This document shows, piece by piece, positions 5,642 through 58,618 of a stretch of 64,000 bases of DNA. Every line of letters starts with the position of its first letter. The first letter of the stretch is position 1. The stretch comes from Candidatus Poribacteria bacterium (GTDB lineage Bacteria; Poribacteria; WGA-4E; WGA-3G), in the NCBI GenBank assembly GCA_965220065.1, contig OZ244804.1, forward strand, positions 1,344,915-1,408,914, given 5' to 3'. Under the pieces are notes generated by a model. The model was not told the origin of the DNA. It did no database searches and saw only the letters and a list, made by a program, of their open reading frames with translations. A program made the position numbers and the translations under genes.

Positions 5642-6052
5642 TCACTGTGAATAATCGTTCCGTTTTGCTGGATCCTCCGTGAAGTACTCGACGAATTCCC
5701 ATTCAAAACCATCCGCATCAATGAAATAGATCCGCTTTCGGTGGGGATGGGGTTCGACTTTGTAACCTTCTTTATATCCAGCAGCGAGCATACGCTCCCG
5801 AATACCTTCAGCGTCATCGACAGAAAAACCGAGATGGTTCACATAGGTCCCTTCCCGGTTACCTGTAAACGGATGCTTGCGGTCTGACAAGGCAATGTAA
5901 AAATCGTCAGTCCCAAGATGACACCATTTCGTTCCGTTCGCATTATCACCACCGCCCCTGACTCGGAAATCTGGAAAGGCAGTTGTTAGAAAATCGATCG
6001 CTTTTTCAAGGTCATTCACGCTCATGTTGGCGTGTTCGAGATAACGGTTCAT
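5642..6052 (-). CDS. VOC (glyoxalase / bleomycin-resistance / dioxygenase) family protein
   Basis: 'MNRYLEHANMSVNDLEKAIDFLTTAFPDFRVRGGG...' The start was reassigned to the ATG at 6052, which is preceded by GGAGGA. The ORF-track start at 6082 is a TTG. Confidence 0.7.
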   Translation of the reverse strand: MNRYLEHANMSVNDLEKAIDFLTTAFPDFRVRGGGDNANGTKWCHLGTDDFYIALSDRKHPFTGNREGTYVNHLGFSVDDAEGIRERMLAAGYKEGYKVEPHPHRKRIYFIDADGFEWEFVEYFTEDPAKRNDYSQ

Positions 6053-6090
6053 TTTTAAATCCTCCTGGAATTGAAAGTTCAATTGTATGC

Positions 6091-6108
6091 TATAGTTTGG
6101 ACAAATCC
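6091..6108. promoter_or_regulatory. 18-bp motif TATAGTTTGGACAAATCC (copy 1), about 40 nt upstream of the VOC start. Candidate operator shared with the Rieske gene.
   Basis: An exact 18-mer copy occurs at 8164-8181. The core TTTGTCCAAA is a 10-bp near-palindrome. Confidence 0.35.
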
Positions 6109-6235
6109 TTGGAAATTTTAGGGGTGCAATGAAGTTGGAAAATCTTCGACAATGTGAATTTTCAACGAATTTCCGTTCAACCCAACCTACGAAAGAAAAG
6201 TCGAACTCATGTTAGTGTATAATGCAAGAACGACA

Positions 6236-8077
6236 TCAATCGTCGTTGCGTTCACTTAGCAACTCGCCTCGTGCGAGCCGTTCTGCGTTTTCCGTAGACC
6301 ACAAGATATTCTTCATCAACTTCTGCGCAGTAATGTAGCGGGTCGCTGCCAATAGATGCATTCGCTGTTCTTCCACATCAACCGACAACTCATAATGTCG
6401 GAATGCGACTTCCAGTACTTGGAACATGTGCAGTTCTGCATCTTCGCGGAGTAGGATGTGTGAGAGTGCTTGCTTCAATGGCGTAATCTCATGTCCCTCT
6501 TCCAGATACTGATTCACCAGAATTTCTGCCTCATAGACTTTCTGGAAGTCCGCAAACTCTTGTAGCCTTTTCAGCATCTTATCAACGGAGTCATAGGTTT
6601 CATCAAGTCGCTGTCCCGGTTTCGGTATACGGGCAGCAGGCATGTTCAACCAACGCAGATATGACAAGAAAACGACACCGTGAAAAATACCACGCAGTAA
6701 GTGGGCACTCGGTGCATAATCAAAGGCGTGGTAAAGCGCGTGCGCGTAAGAGTAAATATTCGCTACATCGTGCCAATCGCCTTCGTTCTTTAGATGAAAA
6801 CGAGCCGTCCGAATCGCAGAAGCGTAGGTCATTGCTCGGCAGATGTCTCTCGGATTCACACCCGCACGAAGTTTTTCTTCGACAGCAACAACAATCGGCT
6901 CGAAATCGTCACCGAGGAGCGTCTGTGTAAACGCTGAAATATCGAGTTTTGCTTCGTTGGCTTGGTTGTCCTGCCAGATACTATCAAGTCGCTCAAAGAG
7001 AGATTCTAACACAGGCACGGCGTCTGCCCAACGTGAAGTCTCCTCATGGCGGGTTCGGCTCACCAGATCGACAATAATCGGGCGTAAAATTTCGTGTGCC
7101 CCTTGCCAGTCGACATAATCTAACGCCTCGAACATCTTGTTGGCAAAATCGAGGGCATGCCCATCGCCCGTAAAGTAGAAGTCGGTCGCCGCAGTGTAGA
7201 CGAAATCTGCGATCACCGATTTATCGTAGCCGCGGTCATTAAGTGTCAACAAAATGCGTTCTGCTGCCCCTGAATGCCGTTTATCCACAAAGTAGCGGAA
7301 CCATCGCTTGAGTGTTTCAAGGTTGTGTTCCTCACTCATTGCAGGGAATGGTGCACGATAAGGGCGAGAGCTTCCTGTTGTTCGACGACTAATCTGAGTT
7401 AAGCCGTGTACGAGAAATAGGTTGTGATCATTTGGGTCTACATCGTCCCATAAGTTTGCAGCCAAGGTAAGAATAGCGACACCAGACGACCATCCCTCGC
7501 TACTCTTGTGTGCGCCGTAGTGGAGTCCTTGATGAATAATTTCACTGGGTGCCGCGCCCGCGTCTCGAAGTGCAGTGACGGCTTTTGCGATAAAGAAGGT
7601 GCTGCGGTCTTTGAGTCCTCGTTCAAGTGCCCGCTTGCCGCGGTCAATGACACGTCGTTTTGCCGCCTCTCGCTCTCCTTTTGCCAATCCGACATATAGG
7701 TGACCGTCATCTCGCAGTTCGACGGGAAAGGCTTTGAGGTCATCGCCGAAAGCCTGAAAGCATCCGCCGGATTTGAGGTCAAATTCCCAGTGATGCCAGT
7801 GGCAGATCAGTACCCCATCTCGGATACTGCCTTTGGACATAGGATACCCCATGTGTGGGCATCGGTTATCAACAGCGTAAAATTTATCTTGGTATTTGAA
7901 AACAGCCAAGTGTGTGCCGTTGATATGGAATGGCTTACCTTCCACTTCTTGAAACTCATCAGGGCGACAGAGTTGATGGTATTCAAGCTCGGTTTTCTCT
8001 ACCACTTCTACGGGAAGTGGATCAAAGTGAATCGAACCGGCACCGGTTTCTTCAGGTGTAAAGGTTGAAGTACGCAC
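6236..8077 (-). CDS. Rieske [2Fe-2S] domain protein with a ~480-aa C-terminal helical domain of unknown function
   Basis: Rieske ligand motifs 'CPHMG...(17 aa)...CHWHHW'. GTG start preceded by GGAGG. No Rieske-oxygenase alpha-subunit catalytic domain. Confidence 0.7.
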   Translation of the reverse strand: MRTSTFTPEETGAGSIHFDPLPVEVVEKTELEYHQLCRPDEFQEVEGKPFHINGTHLAVFKYQDKFYAVDNRCPHMGYPMSKGSIRDGVLICHWHHWEFDLKSGGCFQAFGDDLKAFPVELRDDGHLYVGLAKGEREAAKRRVIDRGKRALERGLKDRSTFFIAKAVTALRDAGAAPSEIIHQGLHYGAHKSSEGWSSGVAILTLAANLWDDVDPNDHNLFLVHGLTQISRRTTGSSRPYRAPFPAMSEEHNLETLKRWFRYFVDKRHSGAAERILLTLNDRGYDKSVIADFVYTAATDFYFTGDGHALDFANKMFEALDYVDWQGAHEILRPIIVDLVSRTRHEETSRWADAVPVLESLFERLDSIWQDNQANEAKLDISAFTQTLLGDDFEPIVVAVEEKLRAGVNPRDICRAMTYASAIRTARFHLKNEGDWHDVANIYSYAHALYHAFDYAPSAHLLRGIFHGVVFLSYLRWLNMPAARIPKPGQRLDETYDSVDKMLKRLQEFADFQKVYEAEILVNQYLEEGHEITPLKQALSHILLREDAELHMFQVLEVAFRHYELSVDVEEQRMHLLAATRYITAQKLMKNILWSTENAERLARGELLSERNDD

Positions 8078-8163
8078 GATTTACCTCCTGACACGTAGTG
8101 TCCAATTCAAGGACATTCGGTGTAAAGTTTTTCATTCTTTATTTCGTCCTGACTATAATTATC

Positions 8164-8181
8164 TATAGTTTGGACAAATCC
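8164..8181. promoter_or_regulatory. 18-bp motif TATAGTTTGGACAAATCC (copy 2), about 85 nt upstream of the Rieske-protein start
   Basis: Identical to 6091-6108. A degenerate inverted partial copy lies at 8407-8432 (ATTGTCCAAAG...TATAG). Confidence 0.35.
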
Positions 8182-8287
8182 AATGAGGTTGCTGCCCGAT
8201 TCTCATGGCTTTTCTGATTTTTCTTCGGTTTCTATAGAAAACCCCAACTCGTGGAAAATAAACCTGAATCTGAAAGAGCGTCAGCCC

Positions 8288-8391
8288 CCGGTGAATGCCA
8301 TAGGGAACCTTCATACCGTTGATTCCGGGATGAAATGTGTGTAGAAACGCCCTGTCCCCCAAGGTCTAAGCCTCCGGTGAATGCCATAAGG
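8288..8391. promoter_or_regulatory. Pair of direct repeats CCGGTGAATGCCATA(G/A)GG spaced 86 bp apart, in the Rieske/bEBP divergent control region
   Basis: Copies at 8288-8305 and 8374-8391. A related palindromic variant CCGATGAATGCCACACGCGCATTC lies at 51006-51029. Confidence 0.3.
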
Positions 8392-8684
8392 TGTATCCCT
8401 CTAAAAATTGTCCAAAGCTTAGAATTGTATAGTCTAACTCAAATCGGGTTAGCTACCTTTTGCCTTACAATGGTAGAGCAAGTTTGATGCCAAGTGTTCA
8501 GGTTCCTATACAATTGAGATATATCAATGTTTTACAGGGCAAAATGAAATTTCAGATTTTACCGATATATTTCAAATCTGAAACAAAACCGGAGTTAATT
8601 GCTGAGGGAGCTTAGAAATAGGACTGACGCAAAATTGAATTGAAACGCCTATCTTCGGATAGCACAAAGGGTTCCTATCACGGG

Positions 8685-8713
8685 CCCGGTGTGGTTACAA
8701 ACCGCACCTACCA
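8685..8713. repeat. REP-like hairpin, family 2 (CCGGTGYGGTTNNNAACCGCACCTACC), copy 1
   Basis: Near-perfect 9-bp stem GGTGTGGTT/AACCGCACC. Related copies at 15096-15125 (inverted) and 54661-54690. Confidence 0.5.
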
Positions 8714-8785
8714 GCGGAGTATGTAAGTGTTAAAAATATAGGTTATTGCACAAATGAAACAATTTTCATTTATGAAACAAAATTC

Positions 8786-8814
8786 TTGACATTCGCTTTA
8801 TCCTGTGATAATCT
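8786..8814 (+). promoter_or_regulatory. Putative sigma-70 promoter for the Rieske-bEBP gene
   Basis: TTGACA (8786-8791), then a 15-17 nt spacer, then tgTGATAATCT, an extended -10-like box. About 45 nt upstream of the ATG at 8857. Confidence 0.35.
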
Positions 8815-8856
8815 GTAACCTATAGATAACGAATTCTATTCACGCGTGGAGGGAAA

Positions 8857-11022
8857 ATGGTGAAGTGGATTAATGTAGTTAAAACATCTGAAATTGAACC
8901 GGGACAGAATATCATCATCAAATTGGACAATGAAAACATTGCAATCTTTAACACGGGTACAGAATTTTACGCTATCAATAACACCTGTCCGCATCAGGGC
9001 GGACCGCTCAATGAGGGAACCCTGGCGGGTGAAGTCGTTACCTGTCCGTGGCACGGTTGGCAATACAATTTGAAAAGTGGATGCCCTATTACCACGCCGA
9101 ACCTCCGAACCTATCCGCTCCGACTTGATGGAGACACCCTTCAGATCGCAATCCCCCCTGAAGCACCAGCAAACAACACACCCGAAGATACCGTTTTTAA
9201 TCAAAGCATTGAAACTGATCAGGTCTATGGAATCCTTGAGCAGATTCAGCTTGGAAAGACACTCGATGAAGTGTTTGAGAATATCTACGCTGGACTTCAG
9301 AACATAGTGCCGCACAATCGATTAGGCATTGCACTCATTGATGAATCTTCCGGTGATTTAGTGCAGTGCAAAACGAAATCCAACAGAAAAATCTTGCTGG
9401 ACAACGGGTTTTCAGCAAAGATCAAAGGATCAAGCCTTGAGCCTATCCTCAATTCAGGTGAAGCCCGGATTATTGACGATTTTAAAGAAATTCTCGCAAG
9501 AAGACCGACGCACTGGACAAGATTGATGGTCCAAGAGGGGATGCGCTCCAATCTGACACTTCCACTCAAGGTACAGGGTAAACCCATTGGGGTCGTCTTT
9601 TTCACCAGTGAAAAACCCCGAGCATTCTCCGAAGTGCATATTGGGCGACTGAAACCCATTGCCGGACAACTCTCGATTCTGATTGAAAAAGGGAATTGGA
9701 CAGACGAACTTGCCGAAAACAACAGACGATACCGCACACTTTTTGAGATGTCCAACGACGCAATCTTCATTTGTCCATCACTAACAGAGGACTTCGTTAC
9801 CGTAAACGAAAATTTTTGTGCATGGCTTGGTTACACACATCAAGAACTCGCCAATCTATCCCTGTGTGACCTAATGCCTCCCGATGAATTTCAAAACACC
9901 CGCGAAACGCTCAAAGAACTCGACCAGCAGAACCCAATCACTTTCCAAACGGAACTGTCCCGTAAAAACAAAAACCGTTTATCCTTGGAAATTCGCGCCA
10001 TCCGAATTGCGCATGACGAAGGAGAATTCATCCAGGGGTTTGCGCGCGATCTCTCGGAGGTAAAGGCACTCAGTGCTCAACTGAAGGAACACCATTCGTT
10101 TGGGAACCTCATCGGGAAAAATCGGAAAATGCAGGAGATTTTCGGGTTAATTCAACTCGTCGCACCCATGAAAACGACCGTCCTAATTCAAGGTGAAAGC
10201 GGTACCGGCAAAGAACCGATCGCTCACGCAATCCACGACAATAGTGAGAGGGCAAAAAAGCCTTTTATCCGCGTCAATTGCGCTGGCTTGGTTGATAATT
10301 TATTGGAGAGTGAACTCTTTGGACATGTCAAAGGGGCATTTACTGATGCCATCGCAACGCGCGAAGGGCGATTCGCAGCTGCGGACGGGGGCACCCTTTT
10401 TCTTGATGAAATCGGTGAGTTAAGTCTCGGAACACAAGCAAAGTTGCTCCGCGTCTTGCAAGAGGGCGAATATGAAATGGTCGGTTCAACTGAGACAAAG
10501 AAAGTAGATGTCCGCATCATTGCAGCCACGAATCGAATCCTGAAAACAGAAATTGATGCTGGACGTTTCCGCGAGGATTTATACTACAGACTCAACGTCG
10601 TCCCGATTACCCCGCCTCCACTCCGTGAAAGACGCGATGACCTTCCACTCCTCGTTGAACACTTCATCGAAAAATTCAGTCAGCAGACACAGAAACCGAT
10701 TCATCGCACCTCACCCGATACTCTTGAAATCTTAATGGATTATGCCTACCCCGGCAACGTGCGGGAGTTGGAAAATATTATAGAGCACGCATTCGTTAAA
10801 TGTCAGGGTGGAAGCATTGAAAAGCAACATCTACCGCTCGATCTTATTTCTTCGAGAGACGATATTGTTACGCAGGCACTCAGGGAGAGCAACCCACTTG
10901 CGGCATTGGAACGTGAATTAGTTCAACGGGTTTTGGAGGAGTCTGATGGAAAGCCACAACTTGCTGCCCAACGTTTGGGGATTAGTCGGACAACCCTATG
11001 GCGCAAACTTAAGGCGGTATAG
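8857..11022 (+). CDS. Sigma-54-dependent transcriptional activator (bEBP) with N-terminal Rieske [2Fe-2S] domain, GAF and PAS sensor domains, AAA+ sigma-54-interaction domain and C-terminal Fis-type HTH
   Basis: Rieske 'CPHQGGPL...CPWHGWQY'. Walker A 'GESGTGKE'. 'GAFTDA', a variant of the GAFTGA sigma-54-contact motif. 'FLDEIGEL'. C-terminal 'LAAQRLGISRTTLWRKLK'. GGAGGG RBS. Confidence 0.8.
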   Translation: MVKWINVVKTSEIEPGQNIIIKLDNENIAIFNTGTEFYAINNTCPHQGGPLNEGTLAGEVVTCPWHGWQYNLKSGCPITTPNLRTYPLRLDGDTLQIAIPPEAPANNTPEDTVFNQSIETDQVYGILEQIQLGKTLDEVFENIYAGLQNIVPHNRLGIALIDESSGDLVQCKTKSNRKILLDNGFSAKIKGSSLEPILNSGEARIIDDFKEILARRPTHWTRLMVQEGMRSNLTLPLKVQGKPIGVVFFTSEKPRAFSEVHIGRLKPIAGQLSILIEKGNWTDELAENNRRYRTLFEMSNDAIFICPSLTEDFVTVNENFCAWLGYTHQELANLSLCDLMPPDEFQNTRETLKELDQQNPITFQTELSRKNKNRLSLEIRAIRIAHDEGEFIQGFARDLSEVKALSAQLKEHHSFGNLIGKNRKMQEIFGLIQLVAPMKTTVLIQGESGTGKEPIAHAIHDNSERAKKPFIRVNCAGLVDNLLESELFGHVKGAFTDAIATREGRFAAADGGTLFLDEIGELSLGTQAKLLRVLQEGEYEMVGSTETKKVDVRIIAATNRILKTEIDAGRFREDLYYRLNVVPITPPPLRERRDDLPLLVEHFIEKFSQQTQKPIHRTSPDTLEILMDYAYPGNVRELENIIEHAFVKCQGGSIEKQHLPLDLISSRDDIVTQALRESNPLAALERELVQRVLEESDGKPQLAAQRLGISRTTLWRKLKAV

Positions 11023-11181
11023 TTGAGGGTTCGGGGCAATCACTTTGTGGTGGACCTTAGAAGAAATCCGGGTGTTTGAAATCCAACCCCGACACGTTTT
11101 TCATTGACAACTTCATGGAAGTTAACATATCATATCCGATGAGCGTTGACCCGTTGCTATCGTTTAAAAGGAGTCGTAGAA

Positions 11182-11985
11182 ATGTCGAAAGCCCTCTCCC
11201 TTGTGGCACATAACGATTTAGAGAGCCAAGTTGAGGCATTGGAAAGAGATGGGTATGTCTATTTCCCCAACGTGCTTGATGCTGATGAAATCGCTGAATT
11301 GCGTGCAACCATGGATCGATTAGAGGCGATCCCAGAATCTCACGATCGGGACGAAACGCCTCAAAATGGCGACGCATTCCTCCACAAGCTCATTAGCAAC
11401 TCGTTTAATCGAGACCCGTTGTATCTCCAATTCCTTGACAGATCCCCCGTTTTTGAAGTCGCTGAGGCGGCGCACGGCGAGGATTTCCATTGCATCGGCA
11501 TGCATTCGTGGCTGACGGGACCCGGACGCCCGGATCAGGGGTTACACTCGGATTGGTTGCCGATCCGTCTACCGGCAGATGTTCGTTCCGATCCACGCGT
11601 CAAAATCCCGATCTTCATCACCACCGCCCATTACTATCTCAATGATATGTATGAAGAATTGGGACCGACGAAGTTTGTGCCGGGCAGTCACCTCTCTGGG
11701 GGTTCCCCAAATGGAGCAACAGAATGGAATAACCGAGGAGAGGAGAGTATCTTGTGCAATGCGGGGGACGTCGTGCTATTCCGTAGTGAAGTCTGGCATC
11801 GTGGCTCTGCCAATACCAGTGACGAAGTCCGTTATCTCATGCAGGTACACTATGCGCAGCGGATGATTACACAGAAGTATCCACCCTATCTGAACAAATT
11901 TCAGTTCAATACATCGATTCTCGCCCAAGCAACCCCTCGACAGAAGCGGCTCATGGGCGACCATCGACCGAGTAATTACGATTAA
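11182..11985 (+). CDS. Phytanoyl-CoA dioxygenase (PhyH) family Fe(II)/2-oxoglutarate oxygenase, paralog 1
   Basis: The start was moved to the internal ATG (MSKALSLVAHN...), which has an AAGGAG RBS, by alignment with the paralog at 15220. About 80% aa identity to that paralog. Confidence 0.8.
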   Translation: MSKALSLVAHNDLESQVEALERDGYVYFPNVLDADEIAELRATMDRLEAIPESHDRDETPQNGDAFLHKLISNSFNRDPLYLQFLDRSPVFEVAEAAHGEDFHCIGMHSWLTGPGRPDQGLHSDWLPIRLPADVRSDPRVKIPIFITTAHYYLNDMYEELGPTKFVPGSHLSGGSPNGATEWNNRGEESILCNAGDVVLFRSEVWHRGSANTSDEVRYLMQVHYAQRMITQKYPPYLNKFQFNTSILAQATPRQKRLMGDHRPSNYD

Positions 11986-12793: not shown

Positions 12794-12985
12794 CCCAAGT
12801 TGCTACTTATAAGATTTTAGGCATGTGGACCCCGCTTGTATTGCAAATCGTGGCGTATTTTCGGATTTTTGTAGCGTAAACTTTCAGTTTGCGCACGGAT
12901 ATGCACAATCTAAAAGATTATGCTACAAACTGGCAACTTCGGTCATTTAACCGCAATCCTCTGTCTGAAAAGGAGATATGAGCGC

Positions 12986-15028
12986 ATGAAAGTAAAAAGA
13001 ATGCTCCTTTTTACTTTAACGCTCCTAATAGTTTCGAGCGTCGGTATTCTTCCTGGGTTGGCGCAGTATGTCGCATATACCCAATTCAGTTTACCCGAGG
13101 GTGCCATCGCGCGTATCGGTAAAGGCAGTGTAGGAGCGGGAACATATTCTCCAGACGGTTCAACGTTTGCCGTAGGAAGCAGTATCGGTATATGGCTGTA
13201 TGATACCAAAACATTCCAAGAACTTGAGTTGATCAGGGGGCAGCGGAGTTGGTTCTCAAGCATAGCATTTAGTCCAGATGGTTCAACGCTTGCCACTGGA
13301 GGTGGGGATATGGATCGGACGGTGCGTTTGTGGGACGTTGCGACAGGTTCGATCAAAACCACACTCACCGGAGGGCATTGGGGCGGGATCTATAATATAG
13401 CGTTCAGTCCGGACGGTTCAACGCTTGCCAGTAGTGGGGGTAAGGGTATAGACGATACGGACGGAACCGCGTGTTTGTGGGACGTTTCAGCGGGCACCCT
13501 CAAATTCACACTCACCGGACATACGTATCATGTCAACATATCGCTCAGTCCGGACGGTTCAATGCTTGCCAGTGGGGATGGGTATAGGGCCGGAACGGTG
13601 CGTTTGTGGGATGTTTCAACGGGCACCCTCAAAGCGGAACTCACTGGGCACACGGAATATGTTTCAAGTGTATCGTTCAGTCCAGATGGCTCTACACTTG
13701 CCAGTGGGAGTGGGGATAACACAGTACGTTTGTGGGACGTTTCAACGGGCACCCTTAAATCCACACTCACCGAGCATGGATTCCTGGTCGGGCGTAGGTC
13801 CCAGGTCATCAGTGTATTGTTCAGTCCGGATGGCTCTACACTTGCCGGTGGGAATTGGGACGGTAGGATTCATTTATGGGACGTTGAGACGGGTGCTGTT
13901 AAATTTACACTCACCACGGGTAGGGCTTATAGTATAGCGTTCAGTCCAGATGGCACAATGCTTGCCAGTGGAAGTCAGGTGTGGGACGTTGCGACGGGCA
14001 CTCTTAAATCCAGACTCACCGGACATACGAGCGGTATCAATCGTATATCGTTTAGTCCGGCTGGTTCAACGCTTGTCTGCGGGCATGGAGGGAATACGAT
14101 TCGTTTGTGGGATGTTGCGACGGGCACTCTCAAATCCAGATTCATCGGACATACGGGTAGTGTATCGTTCCGCCCGGATGGCACAATGCTTGCCAGTAGA
14201 TATGAGGGTAACAAGATTCGTTTGTGGGACGTTACGACCGGTGCCGTCAAGGTGACGCTCACTGGGCATACGGACACAATCGATAGTGTATTGTTCAGTC
14301 CGGATGGTTCAACGCTTGCCAGTTGGAGTCCAGATGATAGGTTGCGTTTATGGGACGTTTCAGCGGGTGTACTCAAAGCGACACTCGACGGATATGGGGA
14401 TTGGAGTGGATGGGTATCGTTCAGTCCGGATGGCTCTACGTTTGTCACTGTGAGTCGGAGTTGGGACGGTCCGGTGCGTTTATGGGACGTTTCAACGGGT
14501 GCGGTCAAAGCGACACTCGAGGGGCATAGAGACCTCGTCGTAAGCGTATCGTTCAGTCCAGATGGCTCTATAATTGCCACTGGGAATGCTAATTCGTATG
14601 GCGGAACGGTGCGTTTATGGGACACTTCGACGGGTGCGGTCAAGGCGATACTCGCTGGACATACGACCGGGATCAGGAGTGTATTGTTCAGTCCAGATGG
14701 GTCTACACTCGCCAGTGGGAGTTCGGATCACACGATTCGTTTGTGGGATGTTTCAACGGGTGCCCTCAAATTCATACTCACTGGACATACAGGTGAAGTC
14801 GGGAGTGTGCTGTTCAGTCCGGATGGGGCTACGCTTATCAGTGGGAGTTCGGATCACACGATTCGTTTGTGGGATGTTTCAACGGGCACCCTCAAATTCA
14901 TACTCACCGGACATACAGGTGAAGTCAGGAGTGTATTGTTCAGTCCGGATGGGGCTATACTCGCCAGTGGGAGTTCGGACGGAACAGTCCTGTTGTGGGA
15001 CATCACGCCGAAAATCTCAGAACCGTAA
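12986..15028 (+). CDS. Secreted WD40-repeat protein with about 14 blades (two beta-propellers)
   Basis: Signal peptide MKVKRMLLFTLTLLIVSSVGILPGLA. Repeated 'FSPDGSTLASGS...VRLWDVSTGTLK' units. AGGAGA RBS, ATG at 12986. Confidence 0.8.
   Translation: MKVKRMLLFTLTLLIVSSVGILPGLAQYVAYTQFSLPEGAIARIGKGSVGAGTYSPDGSTFAVGSSIGIWLYDTKTFQELELIRGQRSWFSSIAFSPDGSTLATGGGDMDRTVRLWDVATGSIKTTLTGGHWGGIYNIAFSPDGSTLASSGGKGIDDTDGTACLWDVSAGTLKFTLTGHTYHVNISLSPDGSMLASGDGYRAGTVRLWDVSTGTLKAELTGHTEYVSSVSFSPDGSTLASGSGDNTVRLWDVSTGTLKSTLTEHGFLVGRRSQVISVLFSPDGSTLAGGNWDGRIHLWDVETGAVKFTLTTGRAYSIAFSPDGTMLASGSQVWDVATGTLKSRLTGHTSGINRISFSPAGSTLVCGHGGNTIRLWDVATGTLKSRFIGHTGSVSFRPDGTMLASRYEGNKIRLWDVTTGAVKVTLTGHTDTIDSVLFSPDGSTLASWSPDDRLRLWDVSAGVLKATLDGYGDWSGWVSFSPDGSTFVTVSRSWDGPVRLWDVSTGAVKATLEGHRDLVVSVSFSPDGSIIATGNANSYGGTVRLWDTSTGAVKAILAGHTTGIRSVLFSPDGSTLASGSSDHTIRLWDVSTGALKFILTGHTGEVGSVLFSPDGATLISGSSDHTIRLWDVSTGTLKFILTGHTGEVRSVLFSPDGAILASGSSDGTVLLWDITPKISEP
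13090..15000. repeat. Intragenic tandem ~126-bp DNA repeats encoding WD40 blades
   Basis: Recurrent 'ttcagtccggatgg(c/t)tc(t/a)ac(g/a)cttgccagtgg...gtgcgtttgtgggacgtt' units. The antisense ORFs in this span are artefacts of the repeat. Confidence 0.6.
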
Positions 15029-15095: not shown

Positions 15096-15125
15096 CCGGT
15101 AGGGCGGTTTGTAACCGCACCGGGC
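15096..15125. repeat. REP-like hairpin, family 2, copy 2 (inverted orientation)
   Basis: 'ccggtagggcggtttgtaaccgcaccgggcatcgg' is the reverse complement of the 8685 copy. Confidence 0.45.
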
Positions 15126-15219: not shown

Positions 15220-16023
15220 ATGGCGAAAGCTCTCTCACTGGTGGCACATAACGATTTAGAAAGCCGAGTTGAAGCACTCGAAAGGGATGGGTATGTCTAT
15301 TTCCCCAATGTGCTTGACGCTGAGGAAGTCGCCGAATTGCGAGCCACTATGGATCGGTTAGAAACGATCCCTGAATGTTTGGATCGACACCAAACACCTC
15401 AAAATGGCGGCGGATTCCTAAATAAAATCATTAACAACTCGTTTAATCGAGATCCGTTGTATCTCCAGTTCCTTGACAAATCACCGATTATTGAAGTTGC
15501 CGAAGCGACGCACGGCGAAGATTGTCATTGTATCGGTATGCAATCGTGGATAACAGGACCGGGACGTCCGGATCAGGGGTTACATACCGATTGGCTACCA
15601 ATCAGTCTACCGGCAGATGTTCGTTCCGATCCACGCGTCAAAGTTCCAATCTTCATCACCACCGCGCATTACTATCTCAACGATATGTATGAGGAATTGG
15701 GACCGACGAAGTTCGTGCCGGGTAGCCATTATTCCGGATGTTCTCCAAACGGACAAACCGAGTGGAAAGGCAGGACGGAAGAGAGTATCTTATGCAATGC
15801 TGGGGATGTGGTGCTCTTCCGTAGTGAAGTCTGGCATCGGGGTTCTGCGAATACGAGTGCTGATACCCGTTATCTCTTGCAGGTGCACTATGCCATGCGG
15901 ATGATTACACAGAAGTATCCGCCCTATCTGAATAAGTTTCAGTTCGATGCATCGATTCTCGCCCAAGTAAACCCTCAGCAGAGACGGCTCCTCGGCGACC
16001 ATCGACCGAGTAACTATGATTAA
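15220..16023 (+). CDS. Phytanoyl-CoA dioxygenase (PhyH) family oxygenase, paralog 2
   Basis: MAKALSLVAHNDLESRVEALERDGYVYFPNVLDAEE... Near-identical architecture to 11182-11985. Confidence 0.8.
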   Translation: MAKALSLVAHNDLESRVEALERDGYVYFPNVLDAEEVAELRATMDRLETIPECLDRHQTPQNGGGFLNKIINNSFNRDPLYLQFLDKSPIIEVAEATHGEDCHCIGMQSWITGPGRPDQGLHTDWLPISLPADVRSDPRVKVPIFITTAHYYLNDMYEELGPTKFVPGSHYSGCSPNGQTEWKGRTEESILCNAGDVVLFRSEVWHRGSANTSADTRYLLQVHYAMRMITQKYPPYLNKFQFDASILAQVNPQQRRLLGDHRPSNYD

Positions 16024-49680: not shown

Positions 49681-50787
49681 TTATTTCGGATAGGCGGTGT
49701 CCAGAGAGAGAATCGCGTAACTGGTTGCTAGGACAGGTAGTGCCTCCATCCAACGACTCTCATCGTTTACCCAGAACCCATCGGGTTTCTGGACCCCGAT
49801 CAGTTTCTCTGCGAGTTCTCGGTACCAATCGTGCGAGATGCCTTTTGCGTCCATAAGAACGGGTTCACCGTAGAGTCGTAACGCCTTTGCCATCGTGTGA
49901 TAGTTGTAGTATAGACCCTGTGCGCCCATGCCGTAGTTTTCTTCCGTTGTGAAATTTTGTTTGATCCACTCGACAGCCGCCTGGACGCGTTCATCGTTCT
50001 TATCTACATTGGCATAGATGAAACTCAACAACCCGGCATACGTCATACTGGCATAGGAGCGCGGGCTTCCCGCGGCATCCGTGCCGGCTTTGCTCTCACC
50101 GTCAGGCGAATAGATAAATCCACCATCGTTGCCTGCCCACGACTGATCATTGCTCTCGCTCCGATTCTGTGTGCGTTCCAGAAACTTAATCGCCTTGTCC
50201 CAAACTTCTTGGTCGTCGGAACCGCTCTCTTTTAGTGCTTGGATGGCAAGGTTCAGGTTGGACAGATCGTGCACGGTTTCACGGCTTCCGTAACCGATCC
50301 CACCGTAATAGACGCTCTCCTCATCTGTGACCTGCAGACTTTTCAGGAAACCTTGTGCCCTTTCAATAATAGATGCATATTCCGAGTTACCGGTTGAGGA
50401 AAGTGCCATTACCGAGATAGCGGTATTGTAATTCGGAAGTGCGGGTTGCATCTCGATATTATAGATCGCACCGTTGGGTTGTTGCATCCCAATCAACTGC
50501 TGAAGTCCCTTCTGGATAAACGGATGTTCTGCCTCCGAGTATTTGTTCTGAGGATGCCGCAAAAAAGCGGTGAGTGCGAGAGCCGTTATTCCCGGATGAT
50601 TGGCAAATAGTCCATCTTCGGCTTGTTGTCCCTTCAACCACACCAACCCACGGTCAATGCTTGCAATGACCTGTTCATTTAGTTCGTGATATTCCGATGC
50701 GCCTGTCTCATGATGTGCAGTTATACCGTTCTGTACGACCGCAAATGTGAGGAATAACACCAGTATCAATCCATGTTGCATTTTCAT
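49681..50787 (-). CDS. Secreted alpha/alpha-toroid protein (prenyltransferase / squalene-oxidase-repeat-like)
   Basis: Signal peptide MKMQHGLILVLFLTFAVV. Repeated 'G..W' / 'QxxDG' toroid-like segments. Confidence 0.45.
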   Translation of the reverse strand: MKMQHGLILVLFLTFAVVQNGITAHHETGASEYHELNEQVIASIDRGLVWLKGQQAEDGLFANHPGITALALTAFLRHPQNKYSEAEHPFIQKGLQQLIGMQQPNGAIYNIEMQPALPNYNTAISVMALSSTGNSEYASIIERAQGFLKSLQVTDEESVYYGGIGYGSRETVHDLSNLNLAIQALKESGSDDQEVWDKAIKFLERTQNRSESNDQSWAGNDGGFIYSPDGESKAGTDAAGSPRSYASMTYAGLLSFIYANVDKNDERVQAAVEWIKQNFTTEENYGMGAQGLYYNYHTMAKALRLYGEPVLMDAKGISHDWYRELAEKLIGVQKPDGFWVNDESRWMEALPVLATSYAILSLDTAYPK

Positions 50788-51049
50788 TCTGTCTCTCCCT
50801 TTCGGCAAGTTGTTAGTACAGTGTTAGCAAATCCGATGCCAATGCTGAAAGCCTATTTTCGCGTGAATTCTCGGAATTCAGCGGAAGATTGCGTCAAAAA
50901 CTGAACGCCACTGTCCATAATCTGAACAATTTTTAATTATTCCTTGCGGTTCGGTCGGTTGGGTTTGGGCTTTTATCGGTCTCTCCGTATATCTGGGGGA
51001 AACACCCCGATGAATGCCACACGCGCATTCAGCGTTGATTCGCAAAAAC

Positions 51050-54660: not shown

Positions 54661-54690
54661 CCGGTGCGGTTAGAAACCGCACCTACCGGG
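54661..54690. repeat. REP-like hairpin, family 2, copy 3 (perfect stem GGTGCGGTT/AACCGCACC)
   Basis: 'ccggtgcggttagaaaccgcacctaccggg'. Confidence 0.5.
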
Positions 54691-55717: not shown

Positions 55718-58618
55718 CTATAGTTTTTCGAGGGGGATGTGAAACATCTTGCCATGCCGAGTAGCAATATAAAGTTTATCGTTGCTGACAACAAGAGAAC
55801 CGACCTCATCTGGAACACTTGGGGAAATCTGATGCCATCTCTGACGGTCATTCAAACGATAGACCCCTGTATCACCAGCACCATAAACGTTGGTATGATC
55901 GACAGCGAGTCTATCGATGACGAGACGTTCACCCATTTCATCGGTGAGCACACGCCAGTGTTCGCCGTTCTGTGAAGCCAAGACGCCTTCGTCCGTTGCG
56001 ACATAAACCGTTGATCCCACAAAGACTATCTCTTTGAAATCGATAAAATGGAGCGGAAGGATCGGTGTGAGGTCTTTCCAACTGTTTCCTTCATCAAGTG
56101 ATTGAAACAGTTTACCATTCCGTTTACCGACGTAGACGGTTTCTCCTGAAACTGCTAACTTAAAGCCTTTATCGGATCTGTCATTAAGCGATCCACTGGT
56201 ATCTATTAACCCGGTATCTGTCCATTCCGAGTCGCCGGGTTTCCACCTGAAGAGCCGGTGCTTCCATTCGGCGTAGAACGTCTGTCCACTGACTGCGAAC
56301 CCGCCAATTCGGCTATAGTCTGTAACTAAGGACGCTACTACTTCTGGAAAGTCCTCGTTTCCTTCACTATTACCTGACAGAAGTCCCTGTGTGAGTGCTT
56401 CTGTCCATGCCACCAACTCAGTAGACGAGAGTTCCCGTTCAAAAGTGGGCGCCCTTTGAACCGGGACAAATGTGTTGTCACCTACAGATAATTGAAAAAG
56501 GCGTAGGTTGTCTTTTCCAGGAGCAATTCCATAAAGAGCGTCTCCAGCAGTTTCTAACTGTGAAGCGAGAGAGAAATGAAGCGGAGAAAACTCTTCTTCT
56601 ATCCCTTCACGCTTCTGTTTAGGTGTCTCAATTCCAACGGTTTCCCACACCTCACCCCCGTCAACTGACTGGACGATTCCTCTATCGGTACGTGCATAAA
56701 GTCTATTGTTGACCGTAACGAGATCCTGTATTGTCGTTTCCGTTATCCCATTCGTAAATGGGTGCCATGATTTGCCGCCATCGGTTGTGCGATGAACACC
56801 AAATGAACCGCCCTTGTAAAAAGTGTTCTTGTTTGTCGTTACGACTCCTTGTGGTAAAAACGTTTCGCCGGTGTGCACCAGAGTTACCGCACCAAGTGCT
56901 GTACTCCTAAAGGGGGATTCATTTCCGTGCGTTATTTCAGTCCACGATGCTCCTAAGTCGGTTGAGTGGAAAACCCTCTCTAAATTTGGGCTGTCCGTGA
57001 TGTGTATCTGTACTGTAATATTTTCAATATTTTCGCTTGATTCGAGAAACTTCCATCTTGATGGCTCAGGTCCCGTTACAACATAGAGATTATTTTCAAA
57101 AACGGTTAGAGACAGGATGGCGTGTTGGGACGGATGAACCGATAATCGCTCCCAGATATCTGAATTGAGGCGATAGAGTCCCTTGTTTGTACCAGCAAAT
57201 ATTGTGTTTCCAACCGCGGCTACTGCGTAAACAGTTTCGTCTGTGAGTCCATTTTCCAAAAGATTCCACTGGGCACCAGCATCTGTGGATCGGAAAACAC
57301 CTTTGGTTTGAAGGCCGAGATACATTACAGGACGTGGTTGTGAGTTATATTTATCTGTTTCATTCATGACGATAAGTCCAACGGCATGTCCCTCTGGTCG
57401 GGAGCAAAGGACCTTCCACGTTTCACCATTATTCGTTGAAGCGAATATTTTGTCGGTGGAAACAATATAGAGGGTGTCGGCATGTTCTGCCATTGGCATC
57501 CGGAACCGTCCGCTTGGTATACTCGTATTGATGCGCGTCCATGTGGTTGCGTCCGATGCGAGTCTATAGATACCCGTCGGTGCAGCAGCGTAAAGGACAC
57601 TTTCAGACGTAACGAAAAGATCCAGGACGGTACCTCCGTAGGGTCCATTTGTTTGTGTCCATTGTGAAGTGGAGAACTTAGCGGAATCCTCCTGTGTATT
57701 GGGTGCTAAAACCGTCTCGGTGATTTGTTGACCGATCCCTCTGCTTTCACTCGGAATAGCGGCATGCCCGACCTGACGCCGCACAGCAGGCTTTGAATCA
57801 ACATTAAGCACAATAGGGGCATCAACGATTTCAATTGTGGGTTCAGATTGTGCCTCAAAACTGTAGGGCTTCTGAAAACGGGTAATGTATTGATTGCTTG
57901 CACCCAGCAGCAACAAAACCACGATGACAGTCGCGCCAAAAGCCGTCCACGGGAGCAGGGGTTTCCCAACAGGAGGCGGTGTCGGTTTCAGGTCAGCGAC
58001 CTGCTGCATGATGTTCTCAGTTAGGCTGGTGGGTAATTGGACACCGCCGAGTACATCGCTCACCAAAAGTTCCTCTTTCTCTTGCAAACGCTTTCGTGCC
58101 CGATGCAGTCGACTGTGAATCGTCTTCACAGACACACCCAAGAATTTACCGATTTCCTTCGCGTTCATTTCGCCGAGGTAGTAAAGCGTCACGACCGTGC
58201 GTTCGCTCTCCGGCAGTCTGGCGAGAAGTTTTTTGACGATTTCACTGCGGCGTTCAGAGGTTTCTGTCTCGCGCTGCTCCGATACATAACGGATATAGGA
58301 GAATTTCTCTATTTCTTCCGTAGATGTCCCATCCAGCGATTGCATCGTGGGTTTCTTCTTCCGGATCCAATTCAGGCAAAGTCTATTTGCGATGACATAG
58401 AGCCACCCCGCAAACTGGTTCAGATCCTTGAGTGTTGAGAGTTTTTTGTATGCCTGAAGGAAGGTATCTTGTGTGATTTCTTCAGCGTGATGAAAGTCAC
58501 CAATCTTCCGCCACGCAAGGGCATGGACACTTTTTCTGTATTTCTGAACCAAGGTGCTAAACGCGGTGTCGTCGCCTGACAAAACACTGCGAATCAGTTG
58601 AACATCATCTCTTTCCAT
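55718..58618 (-). CDS. ECF sigma-70 factor fused in one polypeptide to a TM helix and a ~720-aa extracytoplasmic BNR/Asp-box beta-propeller domain
   Basis: Sigma region 2, 'HHAEEITQDTFLQAYKK'. Region 4 HTH, 'AKEIGKFLGVSVKTIHSRLHRARKRL'. TM 'LLPWTAFGATVIVVLLLLGA'. Six or more S-x-D-x-G-x-x-W boxes (STNNGETW, STDAGAQW, STDLGASW, TTDGGKSW, SVDGGEVW, SLDEGNSW). Confidence 0.75.
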   Translation of the reverse strand: MERDDVQLIRSVLSGDDTAFSTLVQKYRKSVHALAWRKIGDFHHAEEITQDTFLQAYKKLSTLKDLNQFAGWLYVIANRLCLNWIRKKKPTMQSLDGTSTEEIEKFSYIRYVSEQRETETSERRSEIVKKLLARLPESERTVVTLYYLGEMNAKEIGKFLGVSVKTIHSRLHRARKRLQEKEELLVSDVLGGVQLPTSLTENIMQQVADLKPTPPPVGKPLLPWTAFGATVIVVLLLLGASNQYITRFQKPYSFEAQSEPTIEIVDAPIVLNVDSKPAVRRQVGHAAIPSESRGIGQQITETVLAPNTQEDSAKFSTSQWTQTNGPYGGTVLDLFVTSESVLYAAAPTGIYRLASDATTWTRINTSIPSGRFRMPMAEHADTLYIVSTDKIFASTNNGETWKVLCSRPEGHAVGLIVMNETDKYNSQPRPVMYLGLQTKGVFRSTDAGAQWNLLENGLTDETVYAVAAVGNTIFAGTNKGLYRLNSDIWERLSVHPSQHAILSLTVFENNLYVVTGPEPSRWKFLESSENIENITVQIHITDSPNLERVFHSTDLGASWTEITHGNESPFRSTALGAVTLVHTGETFLPQGVVTTNKNTFYKGGSFGVHRTTDGGKSWHPFTNGITETTIQDLVTVNNRLYARTDRGIVQSVDGGEVWETVGIETPKQKREGIEEEFSPLHFSLASQLETAGDALYGIAPGKDNLRLFQLSVGDNTFVPVQRAPTFERELSSTELVAWTEALTQGLLSGNSEGNEDFPEVVASLVTDYSRIGGFAVSGQTFYAEWKHRLFRWKPGDSEWTDTGLIDTSGSLNDRSDKGFKLAVSGETVYVGKRNGKLFQSLDEGNSWKDLTPILPLHFIDFKEIVFVGSTVYVATDEGVLASQNGEHWRVLTDEMGERLVIDRLAVDHTNVYGAGDTGVYRLNDRQRWHQISPSVPDEVGSLVVSNDKLYIATRHGKMFHIPLEKL

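Follow-up and report, generated by a model that had tools for sequence, protein, structure and literature searches.

The locus described here lies in a 64-kb window (64,000 nucleotides, nt) from the genome of a Candidatus Poribacteria bacterium (contig OZ244804.1), and positions are those of this window unless another locus is named. At 8857-11022 on the plus strand is the gene for a 721-amino-acid (aa) sigma-54 activator, or bacterial enhancer-binding protein (bEBP), that begins with a Rieske [2Fe-2S] domain. The gene for a second Rieske protein, of 613 aa, is divergent from it (6236-8077, minus strand), and a gene of the VOC/glyoxalase family (5642-6052, minus strand) lies beyond the 613-aa gene. 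The spacer between the divergent genes contains a sigma-54 promoter that faces the 613-aa gene and two palindromic candidate activator-binding sites. Our analysis followed up an earlier note on this DNA, which had been made from the sequence alone.

Pfam annotation agrees with the earlier note that the regulator has a Rieske, GAF, PAS, AAA+ and Fis-type helix-turn-helix (HTH) architecture. The Rieske domain (aa 3-100; 8863-9156, plus strand like all domains of the protein) is matched by PF00355 over aa 3-84 with an E value of 2e-19. A variable linker (aa 101-125; 9157-9231) leads to the GAF domain (aa 134-277; 9256-9687; GAF_2, E = 1.1e-12), and the PAS domain that follows (aa 291-403; 9727-10065) is matched by PAS_9 over aa 301-401 (E = 3e-12) and also by PAS_4 and PAS. 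The AAA+ sigma-54 interaction domain with its lid (10108-10860) has the Walker A motif GESGTGKE and the L1 loop GAFTDA; Sigma54_activat (PF00158) covers aa 418-584 with E = 8.8e-70 and profile positions 1-167 of 168, and AAA_lid_14 (PF25601) covers aa 590-668 with E = 2e-26. The protein ends with a Fis-type HTH_8 DNA-binding domain (10897-11016; PF02954, aa 681-720, E = 1.9e-11), a region that is 98-100% identical among close orthologues. The L1 loop, which contacts sigma-54, reads GAFTDA in the clade of the window and GAFTGA or GAYTGA in other family members, and GAFTDA is a natural variant expected to keep activation (PMC4641369). The protein has the features of a bEBP: PF00158 with a Walker A motif, a GAFTGA-type loop, a C-terminal HTH with candidate upstream sites, and an adjoining -24/-12 promoter. 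None of the NCBIfam equivalog models reaches its cut-off, and NifA, NorR, AtoC and others align with the AAA+/HTH part only. The conserved start codon of the regulator is probably GTG at 8860 (720 aa), since the preceding codon is not ATG in loci L003 and L008. The exact protein is present on three contigs, one of 5.39 Mb, and more than 20 independent assemblies contain full-length orthologues, some of them on contigs of 3.5-5.9 Mb; their identity is 80-92% over an N-terminal 411-aa query, and one is named Candidatus Poribacteria at NCBI. The recurrence of the fusion in so many independent assemblies excludes the frameshift artefact that the earlier note had considered.

The four cluster ligands of the regulator are intact. 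They are arranged as C44-P-H46, 16 residues and C63-P-W-H66, in agreement with the motif C-x-H-x(15-17)-C-x-x-H, and the reading of the first 100 or so residues as a Rieske domain was right. In an alignment of 19 homologues, including the truncated, Rieske-less P0023, all four ligands are kept in 17 of the 18 sequences that bear the domain, down to 47% identity. The absence of a disulfide cysteine beside the ligands marks the low-potential, ferredoxin-type class of Rieske domains, and no extra cysteine is found in the CPHQGG or CPWHGW loops of the regulator. The three best sequence matches in the PDB are Rieske ferredoxins, among them CarAc (1.4e-14) and the ferredoxin of NDO (1.4e-13), whereas the first oxygenase subunit, NdmA (3e-11), and b6f (1e-4) rank lower. 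By sequence the domain is of the ferredoxin (low-potential) type and is predicted to bind a [2Fe-2S] cluster. The free-standing ferredoxins (CarAc, NDO, BphA3), which match aa 1-100 with E values of 1e-14 to 4e-11 and likewise have C-x-H ... C-x-x-H ligands and no disulfide cysteine, are electron carriers of about 105 aa; the domain of the regulator differs in being fused to a transcription factor. For the Rieske domain the ratio of nonsynonymous to synonymous substitution rates (dN/dS) lies at 0.09-0.20, compared with 0.45-0.56 in closer pairs for the 25-aa linker, which has an identity of 11-60% and a predicted local distance difference test (pLDDT) score below 50. These ratios indicate purifying selection on the Rieske domain.

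The nearest relatives of this domain, at about 44% identity, include small stand-alone Rieske proteins. Local duplication from the neighbouring 613-aa gene was considered as its origin and rejected, the two domains of the locus being only 26-35% identical. The same small-Rieske subfamily is fused to a protoglobin domain in P0031 (434 aa), and in P0047-P0120 its very frequent partners are ferric-reductase-like transmembrane domains (PF01794), while FMN-reductase or NAD-binding domains occur as well. These varied fusions suggest that this subfamily is a widely reused module.

The combination of a Rieske domain with Sigma54_activat is extremely rare. In a word-indexed search of 5.8 billion proteins it was limited to P0001-P0022, and a HMMER search of 1.84 billion cluster representatives returned one full-length protein, P0242 (54% identity, same Pfam architecture), and three fragments. 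In 185,579 species-representative genomes, six loci match Rieske plus GAF, all of them Candidatus Poribacteria, and the remaining hits match the Rieske domain of about 100 aa only; the JGI metagenomes gave one locus (L095). These searches reach relatives of this protein, and independent Rieske-AAA+ fusions lie outside their reach. Searches of the open-access literature gave no description linking Rieske domains to bEBPs or sigma-54, which accords with the suggestion in the earlier note that a Rieske domain is new as a bEBP input. The Rieske domain is retained in every intact full-length member of the family, and the only relative found to lack it is P0023. At that locus (L094, 2384-7668), regulator residues 1-217 and 193-720 are encoded about 3 kb apart, with a DDE transposase gene in between, and this split explains the apparently Rieske-less protein. 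L094 still has the sigma-54 promoter, two palindromes and a divergent 613-aa-family gene called as two open reading frames (ORFs), and it appears from its sequence to be a natural knock-out of the regulator.

The earlier note found no convincing sigma-54 promoter by eye; comparison of loci revealed one. It is a -24/-12 element (TGGCATCAAACTTGCT) at 8477-8492 on the minus strand, facing the 613-aa gene. Ten distinct loci (the window, L003, L006-L011, L090 and L094) have TGGCA[CT]-N5-TTGC at the aligned position with its orientation unchanged, 250-365 bp from the start codon of the regulator. The spacers of L003 and L006-L011 read TGGCAC/T-N5-TTGC, four of them being a perfect consensus. The surrounding spacer has diverged to a mean column identity of 53%, and the promoter block is invariant. 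Matches with at most three mismatches occur at chance rate, and sigma-54-like matches scoring at least 18.5 occur about 0.19 times per kb in these loci. A single match would therefore be unremarkable, and the element is convincing because of its conservation in orthologous spacers. Its conservation points indirectly to the use of sigma-54 in this genome, and we infer that it is controlled by the adjoining regulator. The 613-aa-family genes that do not adjoin a regulator (L086-L088) have neither this promoter nor the palindromes. The activator gene itself has a putative sigma-70-like promoter at 8786-8812 on the plus strand, with TTGACA, a 15-nt spacer and an extended -10 (TGTGATAAT); the TTGACA is invariant in eight loci. 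An Rfam search of the intergenic region returned no match, and ORFs of 51 and 42 aa that are called in the intergenic region of L001 were dismissed because they are not conserved.

Upstream of the sigma-54 promoter are palindromes of the family GTTTCA-N3/4-TGAAAC. In the window the first candidate activator-binding site, UAS1 (TTTCAAATCTGAAAC), is at 8570-8584, 78 bp upstream of the -24 element, and the second, UAS2 (TTTCATTTATGAAAC), is at 8764-8778; UAS2 is conserved in all loci and has a degenerate copy at 8746-8760. TTTCA-N4-TGAAAC occurs exactly twice in the 64-kb window, at these two positions, compared with 0.2 expected. In the Poribacteria loci we counted 21 palindromes in 2,986 bp of promoter-to-regulator spacer and two in 239,864 bp elsewhere, an enrichment of about 800-fold in the promoter-to-gene spacers, although these counts come from related loci and are not independent; 1.56 Mb of unrelated loci contained nine. 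Measured from the -24 end of the promoter, the distance is 77-91 bp for the first palindrome and 135-165 bp for further ones; an insertion of about 115 bp puts the second one at 272 bp in the window. The distal palindrome ends 7 bp before the invariant TTGACA at 8786. A possible IHF-like bending site (TATCAATGTTTTA) is situated between UAS1 and the promoter at 8522-8534. It matches the textbook IHF consensus WATCAANNNNTTR, is weak, and is only partly conserved in the close clade.

In L005 and L092, where the regulator is 53-54% identical, the palindromes are 74-127 bp upstream of the regulator gene and no sigma-54 promoter is nearby. The palindromes track the regulator gene and not the 613-aa gene, which indicates the regulator itself as their binder. 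They show the pattern expected of the regulator's own operator, to which it would bind. It could be argued instead that the -24/-12 element and the palindromes serve other factors, that the activator has its targets elsewhere, and that the adjacency is inherited synteny. The link between protein and sites does come from sequence alone, L005 and L092 have the sites and no adjoining promoter, and sigma-54-like matches have the background rate given above. We nevertheless consider this very improbable, since the promoter block is invariant in a diverged spacer, its orientation is kept in ten loci despite differing downstream genes, the palindromes follow the regulator, and the two genes are still paired in a different lineage whose regulator is 58% identical.

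The insertion between the two activator sites of the window (~8610-8730) is lineage-specific and contains a hairpin-like repeat (…CGGTGTGGTTACAAACCGCACC…) that recurs at the intergenic positions 15104-15125 and 54661-54687 and resembles repetitive extragenic palindromic (REP) elements. A second near-consensus sigma-54-type element (TGGCATCGGATTTGCT) is present in the window at 50826-50841 on the minus strand, 18 nt upstream of an ORF (49681-50808) that weakly matches the C-terminal domain of squalene-hopene cyclases. We noticed no GTTTCA/TGAAAC palindrome beside this element, and a different activator would therefore be needed there.

A divergent neighbour of the 613-aa family accompanies the regulator in the window and in L090, L011, L009, L010, L094 and L004/L095. 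The regulator is 72% identical in L011 and 67% in L009 and L010, where the partner is a paralogue of 39-43% identity. In L004/L095, which represents a metagenome lineage outside Poribacteria, the regulator is 58% and the 613-aa-family target 36% identical. The idea of a dedicated activator with a divergent Rieske gene is thus borne out in several lineages of Poribacteria and beyond them. The gene downstream of the promoter varies: the same promoter faces the VOC gene in L006, about 100 bp away, and a gene for an M24/creatinase-like protein followed by the VOC gene in L003. The VOC gene remains downstream of this promoter, divergent from the activator, throughout L003 and L006-L008. Because the promoter persists while the downstream gene changes, comparison of the loci identifies the module as the regulator and the promoter, with the 613-aa gene as ancestral cargo and the VOC gene as a frequent passenger.

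The 613-aa protein, target gene 1, consists of a Rieske domain (aa 35-108, E = 5.5e-17; ~7688-7975) and a large all-alpha domain (~6239-7675). The earlier note was correct that no catalytic domain of an oxygenase alpha-subunit is present, as Pfam gives no match to the canonical ring-hydroxylating oxygenase domain and the alignment to solved Rieske oxygenases is limited to the Rieske part, about 110 residues. The part of about 480 aa that it left without a function is now predicted to have a DUF4243 fold. An AlphaFold2 model built from 30 sequences has a pLDDT of 81 and a predicted template modelling score (pTM) of 0.78, with the Rieske domain followed by the all-alpha domain, and from this model the C-terminal domain is predicted to share the dioxygenase fold of BTG13/PaD. 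The BTG13-related enzymes are DUF4243 non-haem-iron dioxygenases whose centre comprises four histidines plus one carboxylated lysine, and BTG13, GedK and PaD cleave hydroquinone substrates (PMC12173810, PMC11371914). Many histidines and lysines are invariant in the alignment of the 613-aa family, for which 1,396 homologue hits were found. The model suggests that the 613-aa protein is probably an oxygenase, and its chemistry would be of this kind. In contrast to the 613-aa protein, BTG13, GedK and PaD as described in the literature have no Rieske domain, and a BTG13-related review does not mention one.

The presence of a Rieske domain in both regulator and target raises the possibility of partner sensing, in which the regulator's domain docks like a ferredoxin to a reductase or to the dioxygenase-like domain of the target and reads turnover or electron flux. 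The domain is most like the electron-shuttling Rieske ferredoxins that dock on oxygenases, and both genes co-occur across distant lineages. In L094 an insertion splits the regulator, and the 613-aa-family gene beside it is called as two ORFs. The two Rieske domains, though, are less similar to each other (26-35%) than the regulator's is to stand-alone Rieske proteins (44%), the module has no reductase gene, and the regulator persists at loci without the 613-aa gene. We consider partner sensing quite unlikely.

The 5' leader of the 613-aa gene is lengthened to about 400 nt by a lineage-specific insertion of about 284 bp at 8151-8434, with 27-nt inverted repeats at its ends; the leaders without it are 198 nt in L011 and 93 nt in L090. 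The insertion looks like a miniature inverted-repeat transposable element (MITE). Within it, a 23-nt sequence is directly repeated at 8283-8305 and 8369-8391. These repeats were ruled out as operators, since the insertion that contains them is specific to this lineage and lies on the downstream side of the promoter. A 19-nt stretch from the end of the insertion (GGATTTGTCCAAACTATAG) has an exact copy at 6090-6108, just upstream of the VOC gene. This gene, the probable target gene 2, was rightly placed beyond the 613-aa gene in the earlier note: the Glyoxalase/VOC family PF00903 matches with E = 2.6e-10. Its ORF is 5642-6082 on the minus strand, and the likely start is the ATG at 6052, as called in L001, which gives a protein of 136 aa that begins 183 nt after the 613-aa gene.

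Several known regulators resemble this one in part. NorR of E. coli and Ralstonia is also a one-component sigma-54 activator, in which repression of the AAA+ domain by an iron-containing N-terminal domain is lifted when the iron centre is modified, and it has several upstream sites between divergent genes (PMC2941729 and general knowledge). NorR has mononuclear non-haem iron inside its GAF domain, unlike the separate Rieske [2Fe-2S] domain before GAF and PAS in our regulator, and the NorR model of NCBIfam scores 341 bits against a cut-off of 476, aligned to aa 390-719 (AAA+/HTH) only. VnfA and AnfA, the bEBPs of the Azotobacter alternative nitrogenases, are reported to have an Fe-S cluster in the sensor region, possibly for sensing reactive oxygen (PMC9542535). 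Their cluster is [Fe3-S4], as reconstituted, on a cysteine motif in the N-terminus of GAF, and differs from the two cysteines and two histidines of a discrete Rieske fold. The GAF domain of the regulator has no conserved cysteine motif in our alignment, its single Cys171 being replaced in P0018, P0020 and P0022. By its domain arrangement the regulator is of neither the NorR nor the VnfA type. The XylR/DmpR-type bEBPs are likewise encoded beside the oxygenase genes that they control and have palindromes about 100-200 bp from a -24/-12 promoter (general knowledge); they differ in that V4R/XylR_N senses the aromatic compound directly without a metal cluster. The MobR model matches the AAA+/HTH part of the regulator only. 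SoxR is a functional analogy: the oxidation state of its [2Fe-2S] cluster, set by redox cyclers such as quinones, switches transcription (general knowledge). SoxR belongs to the MerR family, holds its cluster by cysteines only, distorts a sigma-70 promoter and has no AAA+ domain.

The sequences show the domain architecture, intact ligands, purifying selection, and conservation of the promoter, the sites and the gene pairing. Our preferred reading is that the regulator is a one-component sigma-54 activator in which Rieske, GAF and PAS gate the AAA+ domain, with the Rieske cluster as the likeliest source of the signal. We give this reading slightly better than even chances. The regulatory module would begin with the ferredoxin-type Rieske [2Fe-2S] domain, followed by a flexible linker, GAF and PAS. 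Most likely, the regulator would bind the GTTTCA-N3/4-TGAAAC palindromes between its own gene and the divergent -24/-12 promoter and, with the sensor module in a permissive state, would open that promoter with the energy of ATP. The promoter would drive the 613-aa enzyme and, in this genome, probably the VOC-family enzyme as well. The signal would most likely be the oxidation state or the integrity of the Rieske cluster, which could reflect oxidants, redox cyclers of the quinone type, O2 or reducing power, and GAF or PAS may contribute a small-molecule input. By analogy to GAF in NorR, we presume negative control, in which the N-terminal module would keep the AAA+ domain repressed as long as the signal is absent. 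A more specific version, which we think unlikely, would make the cluster a direct sensor of quinone-type redox cyclers, like SoxR on a sigma-54 chassis. Oxidation of the low-potential cluster by quinones from the environment, possibly from a sponge host, would then free the AAA+ domain and induce an oxygenase of a class not recognised before, whose Rieske domain would feed a BTG13-like iron centre of the DUF4243 fold that cleaves the corresponding hydroquinones, and the VOC enzyme would process the product.

A number of observations weigh against the preferred reading. The first concern the signal. In P0014 the fourth ligand, His66, is replaced by tyrosine (CPWYGW). This protein is otherwise 89% identical to the regulator and is present in NCBI, ENA and Logan assemblies; it could be a natural variant with no cluster or altered ligands, or else an assembly error. 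In most pairwise comparisons GAF is better conserved than the other two sensor domains, and GAF or PAS alone could sense. The true effector might be a ligand of GAF and/or PAS, such as an aromatic or quinone substrate of the target, and the Rieske domain would then be only accessory, gating on the availability of O2 or iron or giving stability or oligomerisation without setting the response. GAF and PAS are established inputs of bEBPs (NorR: PMC2941729; others from general knowledge), and a Rieske domain on a variable and probably flexible linker, with one substitution of His66 tolerated, would suit such a role. This alternative is possible, if rather unlikely in our view, because purifying selection acts on the Rieske ligands and domain throughout the family and the domain is kept in every intact full-length member, the exception being a copy split by a transposase. 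The AlphaFold2 model of the full regulator, from 19 sequences, is poor (pLDDT 63, pTM 0.33) and therefore permits no inference on contacts between Rieske and GAF or between Rieske and AAA+. Other points concern the circuit. In the subclade of L003 and L006-L008 no 613-aa gene lies beside the regulator, although the same promoter is kept, and the regulon is therefore not fixed. No RpoN box was found in a scan limited to the 64-kb window and the other loci compared, and the literature on rpoN in Poribacteria was uninformative. The last points concern the enzyme. The ~480-aa part of the 613-aa protein has no Pfam match even at E values up to 10, PF14027 included, a profile search against the PDB found nothing beyond the Rieske domain, and the top 50 Foldseek matches of the model in the PDB cover the Rieske part only. 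The likeness of the C-terminal domain to BTG13 is at the level of the fold, with 8% identity.

The genes downstream of the activator encode a PhyH protein, a Cu/Zn superoxide dismutase (Sod_Cu; sodC), a WD40-like repeat ORF and two more PhyH proteins. They do follow the activator as the earlier note stated, and we considered them as part of the regulon and rejected this: they have neither a sigma-54 promoter nor a palindrome, they are syntenic among close relatives only, and PhyH has its own sigma-70-like promoter (TTGACA-18-TATCAT). They are probably mere neighbours. The PhyH genes at 11146-11985 and 15220-16023 are close paralogues, and the order and number of such genes differ between genomes, with PhyH-sodC-PhyH in L003 and three tandem PhyH genes without sodC in L007. 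This variation indicates that duplication and rearrangement have occurred recently in the region downstream of the regulator. In L088 (3896-8718), a 613-aa-family copy of 75% identity with no regulator nearby has a ThuA-like gene downstream of it, and its divergent neighbour is a PhyH gene, beyond which lies a second PhyH gene; PhyH thus recurs near the 613-aa family in a second, independent context. The WD40-like gene of the window (12920-15028, a 702-aa ORF) corresponds to genes called at 544 aa in L001 (14130-15764) and 680 aa in L002 (14130-16172), and the difference between these near-identical assemblies suggests variation in repeat number or collapse of the repeat in assembly. Further away, an ORF of 966 aa at 55718-58618 on the minus strand combines a sigma-70 factor of the extracytoplasmic function (ECF) type (regions 2 and 4) with BNR/Sortilin-like beta-propeller repeats, an unusually long sigma-factor fusion.

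The bEBPs are a textbook case of modular signal input, and to our knowledge Rieske domains have been known as electron carriers and not as sensors of transcription factors. A Rieske input, if true, would extend sigma-54 control to a new class of cofactor. The sequence yields a complete circuit for testing, with a regulator, a probable operator, a promoter and a target gene. If the likeness of fold holds, the 613-aa family would be a non-canonical, Rieske-fused oxygenase with a dioxygenase fold so far known from BTG13-related natural-product enzymes. Both cases were found in Poribacteria, an uncultivated phylum with almost no characterised regulation.

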